DNA of 32,588 nucleotides. It comes from Dehalococcoidia bacterium (GTDB taxonomy: Bacteria > Chloroflexota > Dehalococcoidia > DSTF01 > JACRBR01). The DNA lies in contig JBGQBE010000039.1 of assembly GCA_041494685.1 (NCBI GenBank), positions 1 through 32,588 on the forward strand. The letters are read 5' to 3'. A program made the position numbers. Of the stretch, positions 21,001 through 27,000 are shown piece after piece (the stretch's first letter is position 1; every line of letters begins with the position of its first letter).

Positions 21001-24000
21001 TTGATCAGGTAGTGCCCGTCGATGTTGTTGAGGAGGACGATGTGCTCCTGGTCGTACTTGCCATCGCCGCCGTCCCGCGGGTCGACGATGAAGGCCCCGC
21101 TCAACCCTTTCGACACCTGCAGCATGTCGTCCATGTGTGCGTGGTACATGAACGTCCCCGGCGTGTTCGGGATCGTGAACTCGTAGACGAACGTCTCGCC
21201 TGGCATGATCGGCGGCATCGTCAGGCCGCCCACGCCGTCCATCGAGTTCGGCACGACCAGCCCGTGCCAGTGCACGGTCGATGCCTCGTCCAGGTCGTTG
21301 CGGTAGTAGATGCGCACCTTGTCGCCCGGCTTGAAACGCAGCGTCGGGCCCGGGATCTGGTTGTTGTACCCCCAAACCTCCTGCGGCGGCTGGTCGTCGC
21401 GGAACTGCCACATGAACTTCGAGCTCGTCAGGTGGACGGTCTTCCAGTCGCCGTCCTCGATCGTCACCACCGCCTCCTTGGGGCCATAGTGCTCGGTCGC
21501 CGCCCGCGCGTGCCCCGAACCGCCCTGGAAGGCGAGCAAGGCGACGATAGCGGCGCCGGCCAGCATCGCTACCCATGAGGCCATGAACCATTTGCGTTGC
21601 ATCTGAGGCTCCTTCACCACTGCTTGAACACGTGTCCGCGCACATTTTCACGAGAGACGGTACAGGGAGAAGGGGCCGAAGGTCACGTTGCCGCGAGGAA
21701 CAGCGCCCAAATGATGAAACTGTGAGGCCGGTGAGGATCTGAGCGTCCTGCCGGCGCGAAATTGACAGGCCGTACGGGCAAGACTAGAGTGGAGAGACTG
21801 GGCGATGCCAAATTCGTGCGCGACCGCGCGCGGAGCGGGGGATCCGGTTCCCGGGGCGCGTGAGCGCCACGGGTTGGGGTGGATCCCGCCGAACGGCGGG
21901 TAAGGCCGCTCTCAGGTCTGAATCCGACAGCTAACCCCGCAGGCAGCGCAGAGAGGCTCACTCCCGGGTCGGCGTGTCCCGGGCTGCGCCATCGCATGGC
22001 TCTCTTGTCATCGCGCACAGAAGCATGAGGAGGACCGTATGTACGGCACACTCTCGCTTTCGCATCGGGCACTCGACGACCTGACCGGCGTGGCGGGCGA
22101 CGCCGCCATCAAGGAACTCCGCGACCTCGCGCGCCCCATCGAGGGGCTCCGCGTCCTCAACCTCAGCGCCACCGGGTTCGGCACCGGCATCGCCGAACTC
22201 CTCAACTCGTCCGTCCCGCTGCTGGTGGACCTCGGGCTGGACGCGCGGTGGCAGGTCGTACGGGCCTCCGAGGACGCCGCCGCCGTCGGCCGCGCGATGT
22301 ACCAGGCGCTCGGCGGTATCTGCGTCGCCTGGACACAGGACATGACCGACACCTGGTTGCGCTACGCCAGCATGAACGCCGACCTGCTGACGGAGCCGTT
22401 CGACGTCATCATCGTCCACGATCCGCAGCCCCTGGCCATCCGCTCGTTCGTCGAGACCAACACCGACGCGATGTGGGTCATGCACTCCCACCTCGACCTC
22501 TCGTCAGCGCAGGATGACGTCTGGATGCTCCTCCGCGGTCACATCGAGAACTACGATCTGGCGATCTTCGATGCCCCGCAGTTCGTGCGGCAGGACCTCA
22601 ATATCGACACGCGTGTCGTGTTCCCCGCGATCGACCCGAACAGCGCGCGCAACATGCCGCTGCCCGACGACGTCATCCGGCGCGTGCTCACGCAGTACGG
22701 CATCGACCCGACGCGCCCCCTCGTCTGCCAGATCTCGCCCTGCGACGTCGAGAGCGACCTCGTCGGCGCGGTCGATGCCTGGTCCGCCGCCCGCGCGCAG
22801 CGCCCGGATCTCCAGCTCGTGATGGTGCTCACCACCGAGCCCCACAATCCCGCCGGCCGCGCCTGCTACGAAGAGTTGGCGCGCCGCTGCCACAACGAGC
22901 CGGACGCCTTCATCGTCGCGATGGGCCGGGAGCCTGGCAACGTCGAGATCAACGTCTTCCAGCGCGCCGCCTCGGTCGTCATGCAGAAGGGCCTGCGCAA
23001 GGGCTTCGGGCTCGGGATCTCGGACGCCCTCTGGAAAGAGCGCCCCTGTGTCGTGGCGCCCGTCGGCGGCCTCACCGAGCAGGTGCTCGATGGCCGCACT
23101 GGCCTGATCGCGCGTACCTCCGCCGAGTTCACCTCCGCGATCGGGCGCCTGCTCTCCGAAGCTGGCCTGGCGAGAGAACTCGGGGAGAACGGCCGCCGGC
23201 ATGTGGCGGAACGCTTCCTGATCACGCGCTATCTTCGCGACTACCTTCTCATCCTGAACGAACTGCACAGGCCGGCAAAGGCAACATAGTGCTGGGCTCA
23301 GTCCCGACCACGCCCAAGTCCCTCGAGTCCTATCGTCCGATCATCGGCGACGACCGGACGGAGGAGATCCGCGCGCTCGCGGAGCGGCTGCGCGGGGCAC
23401 GGGTGCTGCACGTGAACGCCACGGCGTTCGGTGGCGGCGTCGCCGAGATCCTCGCGACGATGGTCCCGCTCTTGAACGACGTCGGCCTTGATGCCGACTG
23501 GCAGGTCATCAAGGGCGCCGACGAGTTCTTCAACGTCACCAAGGCCATGCACAACAGCTTGCAGGGCATGTACTACGACTGGACCCCCGCGATGCGGGAC
23601 ACCTGGCTCAACTACAACCGCGTGAACGCGGAGTTCTTCGACGAGGAATACGACTTCGTCGTCATCCACGACCCGCAGCCCGCCGCCATCCCCACGTTCC
23701 TCCAGGAGCGCGACGGCCGCCGTCCCGGCAAGTGGGTCTGGCGCTGCCACATCGATCTCACCGCCGCCCAGGTCCAGGTGTGGGATTTGCTCCGCCCGCA
23801 TATCGAGGGCTACGACGCGGCGATCTTCACATTGCCCGACTATGCGAAGGACGACCTCGCCAGCCCCCGGATCTTCGCCATCCCGCCCGCCATCGACCCC
23901 CTGAGCCCGAAGAACGCCGACCTGCCCCGTTCCACGGTCAACGACATCCTGGCACGCTACGGCGTCGACCCGGCGCGGCCGATGATCACCCAGATCTCGC

Positions 24001-27000
24001 GGTTCGACCCGTGGAAGGACCCGCTCGGCGTCATCGACGTCTACCGCGCCGCGAAGCGCGAGTTCCCGGACCTCCAGCTCGTGCTGATCGCCTCGATGGC
24101 CAGCGACGACCCCGAGGGCTGGGACTGGTACGAGCGCACCGTGCGTCGCGCCGGCGAAGATTTCGACATCCACATCCTCTCCAACCTCAATGGCGTCGGA
24201 AACATCGAAGTCAACGCGTTCCAACGGGCGGCGCGCGTCGTACTGCAGAAGTCCATACGAGAGGGGTTCGGTCTCGTAGTGTCGGAGGCCTTATGGAAGG
24301 GACGTCCAGTGGTCGCGGGGAACGTGGGCGGGATCCCGTTGCAGATCGAGGATGGGCGCACGGGGTTTCTGGTGAACTCGGCAGACGAATGCCTGGAAAA
24401 GCTGCTATACCTGCTGCAACACCAGGTCGAAGCAGACCGGATGGGAGCGGCGGGAGTAGAGTTCGTCCGGGACAGGTTCCTGATGACGCGTTATCTGCGG
24501 GACTATCTGGACATGTTTGGTCAGCTCTCGGCAGCCCCGTCCTCAACGTCGGGGCCAGGCCAGCGCGTGCACCGCTAGAACAAGGGATATCGATGAAGCG
24601 CGTCGTGGCACTGGTCCTCGCCGGCGGGCAGGGCGACCGTCTCAGCGTACTCAGCGAAGAGCGCGCCAAGCCCGCCGTCATCTTCGGCGGCCGTTACCGG
24701 ATCATCGACTTCGCCCTCAGCAACATCGTGAACTCCGGCATCTCGCGCGTCGGCGTGCTCACCCAGTACCGCCCCCGCTCGCTCAACGACCACATCGGCA
24801 TCGGCCGCCCGTGGGATCTCGACCGGCAGGGCGGCGGTGTCACGCTGCTCCAGCCCTACCTCGGCCGCGAAAGCTCCGACTGGTACCGCGGCACGGCCGA
24901 CGCCGTCTTCCAGAACATCTACTTCCTCGAGGAGACGCGCGCCGAGATCGTCCTCATCCTCGCGGGCGACCACATCTACAAGATGAACTACGACGAGCTC
25001 ATCTCCTACCACGTCTCCAAGGGCGCCGACGTCACCGTGCCGCTGTACCAGGTGCCGATGGAGCAGGCGCACCGCTTTGGCGTCCTCACCACTGATGCCG
25101 ACAACCGCATCGTCGAGTTTGAGGAGAAGCCCGACCACCCGCGCTCCAACCTCATCTCCATGGGCATCTACGTCTTCAACCGCCAGACCCTCATCGATCA
25201 ACTCGTCGCCGACTCCCAGCGCGACTCCACGCACGACTTCGGCGCCGACGTCATCCCGGCCATGGTTGAAGACCCCGGCATGCGCGCCTTCGGCTACCCC
25301 TTCAACGACTACTGGCGCGACGTCGGTACGATCGAGTCCTACTACGACGGCAACATGGACCTGCTGGAAGACCTGCCGTCCCTCAACATGTATGACCCGG
25401 ACTCCCGCATCCGCTCGCGCGTCACCGGCTTCCCGCCCGCGAAGGTCGGTCACCGCGCCTACATCTCCCGCTCCCTGCTCGACCTCGGCTGCATCATCAA
25501 CGGCCACGTCGAGCACTCGGTGCTGTCGCCCGGCGTCTACGTCGAAGAGGGCGCGGTCGTCCGCGACTCCATCATCTTCGACAACTGCCGCATCGAAGCC
25601 GGCGCGATCGTCGAACGGTCGATCATCGACAAGGACGTGCTCGTGGGCAAGAACGCCTACGTCGGGTACGGTGATGACTGGACGCCGAACCTGGAGCGCC
25701 CCGACATCGTCAACTGCGGCATCACGATCGTCGGCAAGCGCGCGAAGCTCCCGCCGTACACGCGCGTCGGCCGCAACTGCGTCATCGGCCCGAACGTCAC
25801 GGTGACTGCGCCCGGCGACGACGGCTACGTCCCGAGCGGCACGACGATCCGCGGATCAGGCAAGCACTTCCCGCATACGGTATGACGGGACCGAGAACCA
25901 AGAACCTAGAACCTAAGAAGCAGCACCAAGAACCTAGAACCGAGAACCGAGAACCGAGAACCGAGAACCGAGAAGCTGATACTCAGAACCTGAGCGGTGG
26001 TCTGCAGTCCGTCTTAGGTTCCAGGTTCTAAGCTCCTGGTGCTGGCCCGGAGGGCCGTTGAAGCAAGGCGCGTTTACATTCGTCCTCCACTCACACCTGC
26101 CATACGCGCGGATGGCGGGCCGCTGGCCGCACGGCGAGGAGTGGCTCCACGAAGCGGCCGTCGAGACCTACCTGCCGCTCCTCGCCGCCCTCCACGATCT
26201 CGCGGAGCAGGGCGTCCGCTACCGCCTGACGATCAGCATCACCCCCGTGCTCGCCGAGCAGCTCGCCGACGCCGACGTGCTCCGCAATCTCGACGCCTAT
26301 CTCGACGACCTGCACGAACGCGCCGAGCGCGACGTGCGCCGCTTCGAGCGCGACGGCGACTCGCAGCGGGTGATCGTCGCCGCCTTCCACCGCGACCGCT
26401 TCGCGTGGCTGTCGCGCCAGTTCCGCCAGCGCTTCGACCGCGACCTCGTCGCCGCCTTCCGCTGGCTGCAAGATCACGGCTACGTTGAACTCGCCACCAG
26501 CGCCGCCACGCACGGGTACCTGCCGCTGCTCCAGCGCGACTCGTCCATCTACGCCCAGGTGCGCACCGGCGTGCAGACCTACGAGCGGCACTTCGGCCGC
26601 AAGCCGGAGTCGTTCTGGCTGCCGGAGTGTGCCTACCGCCCCTCCTATATCGCGTCCGACGGCACCCTCAAGCCGGGCATCGAGGAGTTCCTCGCCGGCC
26701 AGGGCCTGACCACGTTCTTCGTCGAGACGCACACCATCCTGGGCGGAGAGCTCGTCGGCAAGGCCGCCGGCGACGCCATCGGCCCGTACAGCGAGATCTC
26801 GCGCCGCTACACCGTGCCCGTGCCGCCCGACTCGCAGCCGGCGCACCGGACGACCTTCGAGCCGTACTGGGTCGCCGGGAAGCGCGTCGCCGCCATCGGC
26901 CGCAACGTCACCACCGGACTTCAGGTGTGGTCCGCCGAGCACGGCTACCCCGGCGACTTCGCCTATCGCGAGTTTCACAAGAAGGACGGCGAGTCCGGCC

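Follow-up and report, generated by a model that had tools for sequence, protein, structure and literature searches.

The closest described relatives of the regulatory element treated here are the c-di-AMP riboswitches of ydaO/kimA and ktrAB in Bacillus subtilis and of rpfA and nlpC in Streptomyces and Corynebacterium, which belong to the same Rfam family (RF00379) and occupy the same position in the 5' leader. In the portions of three sources that deal with them, published c-di-AMP riboswitches, all of these included, are OFF switches, and those of Bacillus are reported to serve osmotic and K+ homeostasis (PMC7288161, PMC10117811, PMC9960051). The known targets of the class are transporters of K+, amino acids and osmoprotectants, and cell-wall hydrolases, whereas here they are cytoplasmic enzymes predicted to synthesize trehalose (TreT/GlgC and OtsA-OtsB) in a Chloroflexota host. 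Part of one review does report the class near genes for osmoprotectant synthesis as well as transport (PMC7288161), so the link to synthesis is less novel than a preliminary description of this DNA had implied. It is known that c-di-AMP limits how much K+ and compatible solute a cell takes up, by way of protein receptors and of a few transporters under riboswitch control; its direct control of compatible-solute synthesis has so far been stated only in general terms. Block in 2010 and Nelson in 2013 reportedly found the ydaO motif associated with osmoprotectant genes. A full-text literature search, whose scope lay outside the gene lists of those two studies, returned no paper describing a c-di-AMP riboswitch ahead of trehalose genes.

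The enzymes also have described counterparts. An inert copy of a fold stands beside an active copy in yeast Tsl1/Tps3, plant class II TPS and streptococcal GtfB with GtfA; those are GT20 or other GT-B systems, whereas the pair described below is GT4. A GT4 trehalose glycosyltransferring synthase (TreT) with a pseudo-TreT partner was not met in our literature search, which was not aimed at that point. Some TreTs are reversible, and the enzyme considered here could then also consume trehalose. According to the relevant part of a review, TreTs accept ADP-, UDP- and GDP-glucose as donors, and the solved enzyme dimerizes via its C-terminal domain (PMC11046441). The solved TreTs are those of Pyrococcus horikoshii (2x6q/2xa2) and Thermoproteus uzoniensis (6zj4). 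Compared with these, the present locus unites in one operon a TreT, a conserved paralogue that looks dead, and glgC; no such neighbours are present at 78 TreT loci from other lineages.

The window that we analysed, the whole 32.6-kb stretch of DNA, contains a single Rfam match: a ydaO-type aptamer (RF00379) at 21796-21960 on the forward strand, scoring 68.5 bits (gathering threshold 38) and covering model positions 1-134 of 134 (E 4.7e-14), far beyond chance. This is a genuine c-di-AMP aptamer heading three tightly packed genes of predicted trehalose synthesis, and its response to the ligand would follow by analogy with the described members of the class. The genome has one gene with a DAC domain, and the organism is thus able to make the c-di-AMP ligand. 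We think it likely that the stretch is a riboswitch-controlled operon making trehalose from ADP-glucose. In other words, a transcript starting from the TTGACA/TAGAGT promoter would fold its 5' leader into the aptamer; at high c-di-AMP the aptamer would close and expression of the three genes would drop, as transcription stops early, the ribosome-binding site is masked, or both; at low c-di-AMP, expected after a rise in osmolarity or under K+ scarcity, the operon would be read through. From the sequence and by analogy with the published switches, this is most likely an OFF switch, in which low c-di-AMP would derepress trehalose synthesis. Here we assume that the uncultured host uses trehalose as an osmolyte.

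The enzymatic part of this proposal centres on the second and third genes, whose family matches, like those of the first, agree with the preliminary description. Paralogue B (23289..24578, forward strand, 429 aa) matches PF21269 at 6e-53 and 178.8 bits (cut-off 27) and resembles the solved TreTs from end to end, with 454.7 bits against 2x6q (residues 10-413 on 14-414) and 397 bits against 6zj4. It has all the donor-binding motifs: G48-G50, R238, K243, E325 and E333 do not vary across a set of 14 diverse sequences, and the Gly loop, R-x4-K and EX7E motifs of GT4 enzymes are kept in 49 of 49 B-type proteins. Its score on the NCBIfam TreT equivalog NF041139, a model built on Thermococcales, is 496.9 bits against a cut-off of 775, a shortfall that we read as distance from the archaeal seed rather than as a different function. 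We therefore predict from family and motifs that B is a TreT, which would transfer glucose from ADP-glucose onto free glucose to yield trehalose. The gene that follows (24593..25885, forward strand, 430 aa; NTP_transferase 7.8e-60), previously called only GlgC-like, belongs to that family and deserves the firmer label glgC, glucose-1-phosphate adenylyltransferase. It passes two equivalog cut-offs (NF003670, 493.2 against 470 bits; TIGR02091, 431.3 against 424.9) and a tblastn search places no second copy in the genome, the runner-up having 26% identity; the gene follows B in 33 of 44 relatives' loci. GlgC would supply ADP-glucose from glucose-1-phosphate, and because it is the genome's only source of that nucleotide sugar, the same switch would also gate the supply of glycogen synthase, and perhaps two neighbouring GH57 genes.

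The distribution of the riboswitch among relatives bears on what it controls. The aptamer precedes the A-B-glgC array in 15 of 31 loci of the family, as confirmed in the full list of 136 matches, and also in an unpublished genome (G021) and in one genome of family f5 (G043); the earlier remark that no TreT was found behind the riboswitch in relatives is thus wrong. The same array lacks an aptamer at the other 16 family loci, at all eight loci of family f3 and at four of five in f5, and riboswitch control is therefore dispensable for the operon. A scan of 60 TreT loci from other lineages, which left out another 20, found no aptamer. Two of those 60 loci, from close kin, carry the A-B array.

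The second trehalose route is headed by the same type of aptamer. In the source genome a second aptamer leads an OtsA-OtsB fusion (contig C22; GT20 1.8e-145, Trehalose_PPase 3.8e-42; NF011071 895.6 bits against a cut-off of 634). Of 36 family genomes, 15 have an orthologue, and in 13 of these the riboswitch is directly upstream, so the GT20 association noted before holds and had been understated. At least one of TreT, OtsA-OtsB or a distant GT20 paralogue stands behind the switch in 31 of the 36 genomes. TreT and OtsA-OtsB form a nearly complementary pattern behind the switch across the family, and only the source genome (G000) and G002 have it on both. Because one aptamer leads the trehalose operon and another leads OtsA-OtsB, the preliminary claim that c-di-AMP is tied to the synthesis of a compatible solute is a fair reading.

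An alternative is that the operon chiefly serves carbon storage as ADP-glucose and alpha-glucan, with c-di-AMP gating glycogen and not osmoprotection, and with trehalose either carrying carbon only transiently or being recycled through a TreT that works in both directions. The uniqueness of glgC fits this, as does a GT5 glycogen synthase gene elsewhere in the genome. So do the genes that follow: 172 nt beyond glgC lies a GH57 1,4-alpha-glucan branching enzyme (26058..27746, forward strand; GH57 8.8e-33, BE_C 2.1e-28; NF041133 554 bits, under the cut-off of 1000), which also follows glgC in many relatives, and then a second GH57 protein of 433 aa (27829..29130, forward strand; 2.6e-32). A scan between 25885 and 26058 found no terminator-like site, and the branching enzyme may be co-transcribed with glgC; one or both GH57 genes lie downstream of glgC in 19 of the 44 relatives' loci. 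In two relatives GlgE is riboswitch-led, and part of one paper links c-di-AMP to glycogen anabolism in cyanobacteria (PMC12454622). However, glgA adjoins none of the five RF00379 matches in the source genome, and across genomes the riboswitch is found now before the TreT operon, now before OtsA-OtsB, with trehalose and not glycogen as the common denominator. We consider a primary role in carbon storage unlikely, and the two readings are not mutually exclusive.

The first gene of the operon, paralogue A (22039..23289, forward strand, 416 aa), shares the fold family of TreT (PF21269 4.5e-31, 107.9 bits; NF041139 267.8 bits; 270.6 bits against 6zj4), and the start of B overlaps its stop codon by 1 nt. 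We nevertheless advise against annotating it as a trehalose synthase. Of the two TreT paralogues announced earlier, B keeps the donor-binding residues, but A has T49 in the Gly loop (GGG to GTG), P234 and S239 in place of R-x4-K, and K321 and D329 in place of EX7E, residues whose functions in GT4 enzymes are covered in part of PMC8760489. Since these donor-binding residues are likewise gone in 41 of 41 orthologues, A is probably a non-catalytic GT4 pseudo-enzyme. We hypothesize that, lacking the residues that hold the nucleotide sugar, it would act as a heterodimer partner of B. A structural model of the A-B pair reaches an ipSAE of 0.88 (best of three controls 0.00), a mark that 116 of 157 solved complexes attained, as did 2 of 215 mismatched pairs, with at least 86% contact agreement between runs and a partner pLDDT of at least 88. 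The modelled interface uses the C-terminal-domain region, the same region through which solved TreT dimerizes. We take a heterodimer as the most likely, predicted arrangement, on a model that may pass only because the TreT homodimer has been solved (2XA2, PMC11046441).

It is also conceivable, though we judge it improbable, that A is an active enzyme of altered chemistry, using another donor such as a sugar phosphate or acting like a hydrolase or phosphorylase, rather than a dead partner of B. Purifying selection on A is clear: the mean column identity of its orthologues is 65%, and 65 columns are invariant, among them H151 in a CHID-like motif and a DPQP motif. The substitutions are themselves conserved (all 41 orthologues have Lys or Arg for the first Glu and Asp for the second), which can mark a new active site, and part of PMC8760489 indicates that one Glu of EX7E is expendable in some GT4 enzymes. 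Against this, four separate donor-binding elements are gone at once (Gly loop, Arg, Lys and the Glu pair), A always adjoins an intact B and was found beside none of the 78 TreT loci from other lineages, and the heterodimer model, with the caveat given above, is confident.

Upstream of the operon's first gene on the forward strand, a sigma-70-like promoter (TTGACA - 17 nt - TAGAGT, 21762..21790, 10 of 12 matches) ends just before the aptamer; it is the only promoter-like site within 21600-26200, where shuffled sequences give a mean of 0.6, and its AAATTGACAG box is retained also by relatives without the aptamer. The Shine-Dalgarno sequence GAGGAGG (22027-22033) and the ATG at 22039 follow, 78 nt separating aptamer and start codon. 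The putative expression platform (21961..22038), which includes that Shine-Dalgarno sequence and whose mechanism in the source genome we infer, is the weakest of the leader set: its conserved hairpin CCCGGG/CCCGGG (21963-21968 / 21978-21983) lacks a U-tract, and its sole terminator-like site is a weak hairpin with a 5-bp stem (21988-22000) followed by UCUCUUGU. Among the 16 orthologous leaders, five relatives have 6-10-bp hairpins with U-tracts at the same place, right after the aptamer, and ten have no terminator-like site under the criteria used. The aptamer core is invariant across these leaders, which span 11 genera and a second family, and 11 of 33 predicted pairs show two-sided changes with pairing kept, counted on a MAFFT alignment not fitted to the covariance model. 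That the source-genome aptamer is a decaying or non-regulatory relic, or an ON switch, is very unlikely: its score is the second lowest of the genome's five, a convincing terminator is lacking and half of the relatives have no aptamer, but the match spans the whole model well over the cut-off, the core is held while the helices covary, and no ON-type c-di-AMP riboswitch was found in the parts of PMC9960051 and PMC10117811 concerned.

The five RF00379 matches in the genome (64.8-97.9 bits) lie where the preliminary description had placed them, with the same scores, and the OtsA-OtsB fusion and a GT2 protein (PF13632 2.9e-12) do follow two of them. For the remaining two, small proteins without a family had been named, and a profile search indeed gave none at threshold. 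The one given as 53 aa has in fact 68 residues and is a zinc ribbon. In 13 genomes the 93-aa ORF, taken for a conserved member of the regulon, is missing although the riboswitch is there together with a conserved 3' element rich in C; the ORF is dispensable, and what is conserved in its transcript is the CCUCCUCCUCC 3' element.

Taken together, we tentatively suggest a wider picture, which as a whole is rather less than probable, in which c-di-AMP, through its riboswitches, is the master regulator of the flow through trehalose and alpha-glucan in this Chloroflexota family. No lineage would be without a switch-led trehalose route, and the switch would have moved between TreT and OtsA-OtsB; TreT would be heteromeric, with a dead copy tuning or stabilizing the active one; and the best-scoring riboswitch would drive a small RNA instead of a protein, one that carries a CCUCCUCCUCC anti-Shine-Dalgarno seed. 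If this is true, the C-rich RNA led by the riboswitch may be a trans-acting regulator, with ribosome-binding sites or the purine-rich 3' tails of the other aptamers as conceivable targets. The probable pseudo-glycosyltransferase subunit matters to those who use TreT for trehalose production. For the family itself, the link between c-di-AMP and compatible-solute synthesis, seen in 31 of its 36 genomes, now has a concrete, testable set of targets (TreT/GlgC, OtsA-OtsB and GlgE), and the documented range of the riboswitch extends to an uncultured Chloroflexota lineage.

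The only Rfam match in the whole window is a c-di-AMP (ydaO-type) riboswitch aptamer of family RF00379 at 21796-21960 on the forward strand, which covers model positions 1-134 at 68.5 bits, where the gathering score is 38. A sigma-70-like promoter on the same strand (TTGACA, 17 nt, TAGAGT), the sole such site within 21600-26200, ends 6 bases 5' of the aptamer, and the ATG of the first gene lies at 22039, 78 nt past the aptamer and behind the Shine-Dalgarno sequence GAGGAGG (22027-22033, forward strand). Three forward-strand genes follow, packed without space for a further promoter between them: a TreT-like paralogue, here called A (22039-23289), the TreT paralogue B (23289-24578), whose start overlaps the A stop codon by one base, and glgC (24593-25885). 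Across 16 aligned orthologous leaders the aptamer core is invariant and compensatory changes occur in 11 of the 33 predicted pairs. The RNA in front of the TreT operon is an ordinary RF00379 member; the target set and the host, rather than the RNA itself, set this case apart from known ones. The host genome (3.29 Mb in 87 contigs, 68% G+C, 97.6% complete) holds five RF00379 aptamers, with the places and scores that the preliminary description gave, and its one DAC-domain gene shows a predicted ability of the cell to make c-di-AMP. No RNA runs covering 21700-25900 are listed. Most of this stretch is contained in DNA runs from sediment metagenomes; in three runs the share of sampled words present is 0.71-0.99, and one of the three may be the source.

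By all tests run, B is a predicted TreT. The Pfam and NCBIfam figures reported earlier were reproduced, and the alignments of B to the solved TreTs of P. horikoshii (454.7 bits) and T. uzoniensis (397 bits) run from end to end. It retains the Gly loop (G48-G50), the pair R238/K243 and the EX7E motif's two Glu residues (E325, E333), the first of which corresponds in alignment numbering to residue 326 of the Pyrococcus chain. Its score against the NCBIfam TreT equivalog, a model built on Thermococcales, is 496.9 bits, under the cut-off of 775. The idea, taken from the GH57 neighbours of the operon, that the TreT-like pair is an alpha-glucan synthase is rejected for B because B matches solved TreTs over its full length.

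The description of the operon as encoding two TreT paralogs fits B, which keeps all the canonical motifs, but not A. Kinship of A to TreT is clear in PF21269 (4.5e-31), in 270.6 bits to 6zj4 and in 42% identity to B, and its sequence is conserved, with a mean column identity of 65% and 65 invariant columns. At the donor-binding columns, A has T49, P234, S239, K321 and D329; replacements at these columns are found in 41 of 41 A-type proteins from relatives, whereas 49 of 49 B-type proteins have the canonical residues. According to passages of PMC8760489, in GT4 enzymes the first Glu contacts the donor sugar and the second Glu the ribose, the pyrophosphate is held by the Arg/Lys pair, and mutation of the Glu residues kills activity in some members. 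Given these roles and the consistent replacements, we read A as a putative non-catalytic paralogue and not as a second trehalose synthase. Modelled as two chains, B and A reached an ipSAE of 0.88, while the best of three controls gave 0.00; among solved complexes 116 of 157 attained that mark, among mismatched pairs 2 of 215. Contacts agreed between runs by at least 86% and the pLDDT of the partner was at least 88. The modelled interface is formed by the C-terminal domains, through which, as a passage of PMC11046441 states, the solved TreT homodimer 2XA2 is also joined, and so the result of the model may reflect likeness to that homodimer and does not establish binding.

The third gene keeps its place in the array, but "GlgC-like" proved too weak a label for an NDP-sugar pyrophosphorylase that scores above two GlgC equivalog cut-offs. 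It is the one glgC found genome-wide, the runner-up tblastn match having 26% identity. A GT5 glycogen synthase is encoded on a different contig, and neither TreY nor TreS reaches cut-off in the genome. A third TreT paralogue on another contig (C18 28961-30214) is 47% identical to B and has canonical motifs and no riboswitch; single TreT copies similar to it are present in sister families. The operon is flanked upstream by a multicopper oxidase gene on the opposite strand and downstream, past a 172-nt gap that contains no terminator-like site, by a gene for a GH57 branching enzyme and then a second GH57 gene.

In the host's family, 33 of the 35 searched genomes carry the A-B tandem, which two sister families have as well. 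Among 44 loci fetched from relatives, glgC follows B in 33, and one or both GH57 genes come after glgC in 19; the 11 where glgC does not follow B comprise six that break off at a contig end and five, all from the family f3, without glgC within 8.2 kb. In a named genome collection, 78 of the best 80 TreT loci hold a single canonical TreT, with neither an A-type gene nor glgC within 2.5 kb at any of them. The remaining two belong to the closest relatives, "Chloroflexi bacterium" and "Dehalococcoidia bacterium", at 81-82% identity.

TreT genes had earlier not been found behind the riboswitch in the loci of 28 relatives. An Rfam scan of the fetched loci contradicts this: RF00379 is directly upstream of A in 15 of 31 family loci (of the 16 others, one lacks DNA on that side), in 1 of 5 loci from the family f5 and in 0 of 8 from f3. 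The 136 RF00379 matches listed in the 36 family genomes confirm the 15 TreT leaders, and a further one comes from the unpublished genome G021, counted from coordinates only. Genomes with a riboswitch before the TreT array, the host included, occur in 11 of the family's 19 genera. RF00379 was found at none of 10 loci with other TreT types (the C18 paralogue, five from f2, two from f4 and two from f5) and at none of the 60 TreT loci scanned among the best 80 of the wider collection. Loci without the aptamer also lack the aptamer core word. Such relatives (L038-L064) keep the AAATTGACAG promoter box, which in the window is at 21759-21768, and have a shorter leader of about 100 nt, so the aptamer has been gained or lost cleanly, by insertion or deletion between promoter and ribosome-binding site. 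At four TreT loci (L116, L119, L132 and L143; three from uncultured Actinomycetes or Acidimicrobiia, one from Bifidobacteriaceae), a SAM riboswitch lies about 2 kb upstream on the opposite strand and probably belongs to the divergent neighbour gene.

OtsA-OtsB orthologues are present in 15 of the 36 genomes, with the riboswitch directly upstream in 13 of the 15. Two genomes, the host and its relative G002, have the switch on both TreT and OtsA-OtsB. It is on TreT in 14 genomes where OtsA-OtsB was not found and in one, the unpublished G021, where OtsA-OtsB is there without a switch; conversely, 11 genomes have it on OtsA-OtsB and a TreT array without it. Three carry the switch on a distant GT20 paralogue and five on neither; three of these five are 68-84% complete. 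At least one trehalose-type synthase lies behind a c-di-AMP aptamer in 31 of the 36 genomes, which are related and not independent. A GlgE-type maltosyltransferase directly behind RF00379 at one locus each of two family relatives (L177 and L230; PF11896, 1.5e-53 and 9.7e-51) is a third link of the switch to trehalose / alpha-glucan metabolism.

To define the regulon across the family, we set aside the 5 matches of the host genome, 4 of G021, the 15 TreT leaders and 2 at contig ends, and classed the other 110 by tblastn, ORF inspection and Pfam on 1.5 kb of fetched downstream DNA. The commonest target among these 110 loci is the GT2 membrane glycosyltransferase gene (32, one known by its N-terminus only). 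A zinc-ribbon mini-protein follows the riboswitch at 27 loci, a 93-aa protein at 15, no ORF at all at 13, OtsA-OtsB orthologues at 12, the distant GT20 paralogue at 3 (genus g9) and GlgE at 2; an SRPBCC protein, a PRC-barrel protein and a family-less protein of 201 aa (L209) account for one each, and three loci (L211, L212 and L251) are unclassified. In the host, the GT2 gene behind the riboswitch and a GH57-like gene of 714 aa are divergently oriented (C11 65389-69724), and the conserved N-terminus of the GT2 protein (MDDL...) begins only about 7 nt past the aptamer match, so that aptamer and translation start may overlap.

The zinc-ribbon protein had been described as a conserved mini-protein of 53 aa. 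Its conservation and its riboswitch stand, but its length is 68 aa: it runs from a conserved, earlier ATG (C14 20542-20748, reverse strand; MNT.LPR.CPRC ... CLCC) and has 78-95% identity over 27 relatives, with conservation ending upstream of that ATG. The CPRC...CLCC pattern marks a predicted zinc ribbon, the first CxxC of which would be lost with the start giving 53 aa. The nearest Atlas clusters are hypothetical proteins of 68-70 aa, mostly from Chloroflexota.

The second mini-protein, of 93 aa, is riboswitch-led in 15 relatives at 39-59% identity, but its ORF is absent from 13 others that retain the riboswitch, which weakens its place as a conserved regulon member. A 93-aa profile search of 22 loci left unassigned or doubtful by tblastn gave no match, and 13 of the 22 are without any ORF. 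In the host, the c-di-AMP aptamer concerned ranks second by score in the genome (C3 37960-38099, 94.5 bits); after it come a terminator, the 93-aa ORF, CAGCCTCCTCCTCCAACGG and a second hairpin (element at 38459-38520, or 660-721 of locus L171). The CAGCCTCCTCCTCCAACGG element lies past the 93-aa stop codon in the host (38459-38478) and in 14 of the 15 ORF-bearing relatives; in the 13 ORF-less relatives a strong terminator follows the aptamer, and CAGCCTCCTCCTCCAACGG and the second hairpin come about 50 nt on. This second hairpin is common to a convergent cyclophilin-like gene. Because the element is kept with or without the ORF, the conserved product may be an RNA with an anti-Shine-Dalgarno motif, and the unit resembles a small RNA led by a riboswitch and bearing an anti-Shine-Dalgarno seed. 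Two alphaproteobacterial sRNAs match it in Rfam below threshold, ar35 with 22.2 bits (cut-off 45) and ar14 with 19.3 bits (cut-off 58.8), as leads only.

The c-di-AMP riboswitches covered by passages of PMC7288161, PMC10117811 and PMC9960051, namely those before kimA and ktrAB in B. subtilis, rpfA in Streptomyces and nlpC in C. glutamicum, all lower expression on ligand binding. Five orthologous TreT leaders have, immediately past the aptamer and 31-44 nt short of the start codon, a G+C-rich hairpin of 6-10 bp and then a U-tract. The host leader retains the hairpin (CCCGGG, 9 nt, CCCGGG) but not the U-tract, and the only terminator-like site of its platform, the stretch between aptamer and A start codon, is a weak 5-bp hairpin followed by UCUCUUGU. 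When 21940-22060 is folded as a single strand, its stability does not exceed that of shuffles (z = -0.09), and 10 of 16 leaders have no terminator-like site by the criteria used. With the U-tract gone in the host and no such site in these 10, the platform may vary from lineage to lineage and may work at the level of translation. Pairing with the Shine-Dalgarno sequence has been proposed for the nlpC riboswitch (a passage of PMC9960051); that the CUCC right after the aptamer might pair likewise in the host leader is speculation.

We regard the placing of this riboswitch in front of trehalose genes as a solid observation and a moderate surprise. The ydaO riboswitch has been placed near genes for "synthesis and transport of osmoprotectants" (a review passage in PMC7288161, citing Barrick 2004 and Block 2010), and in Actinobacteria nearly all c-di-AMP riboswitch targets are cell-wall related, according to a passage of PMC9960051. 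Full-text searches found no description of a c-di-AMP riboswitch before trehalose genes, nor do the relevant passages of PMC10117811, PMC8886135, PMC10243994 and PMC6753628 describe one; the gene tables of Nelson 2013, Block 2010 and Ren & Patel 2014 may already name such genes. Less expected are the pseudo-TreT partner, A, and the riboswitch-led C-rich RNA.

As an OFF switch, the riboswitch would allow more ADP-glucose and trehalose synthesis when c-di-AMP is low. In Firmicutes, uptake of K+ and osmolytes is allowed when c-di-AMP is low. We infer the OFF direction, the physiological signal and an osmolyte role for trehalose alike. The strongest argument that trehalose would be the regulated product is that, within this family, the switch alternates between two unrelated enzyme routes to one sugar.
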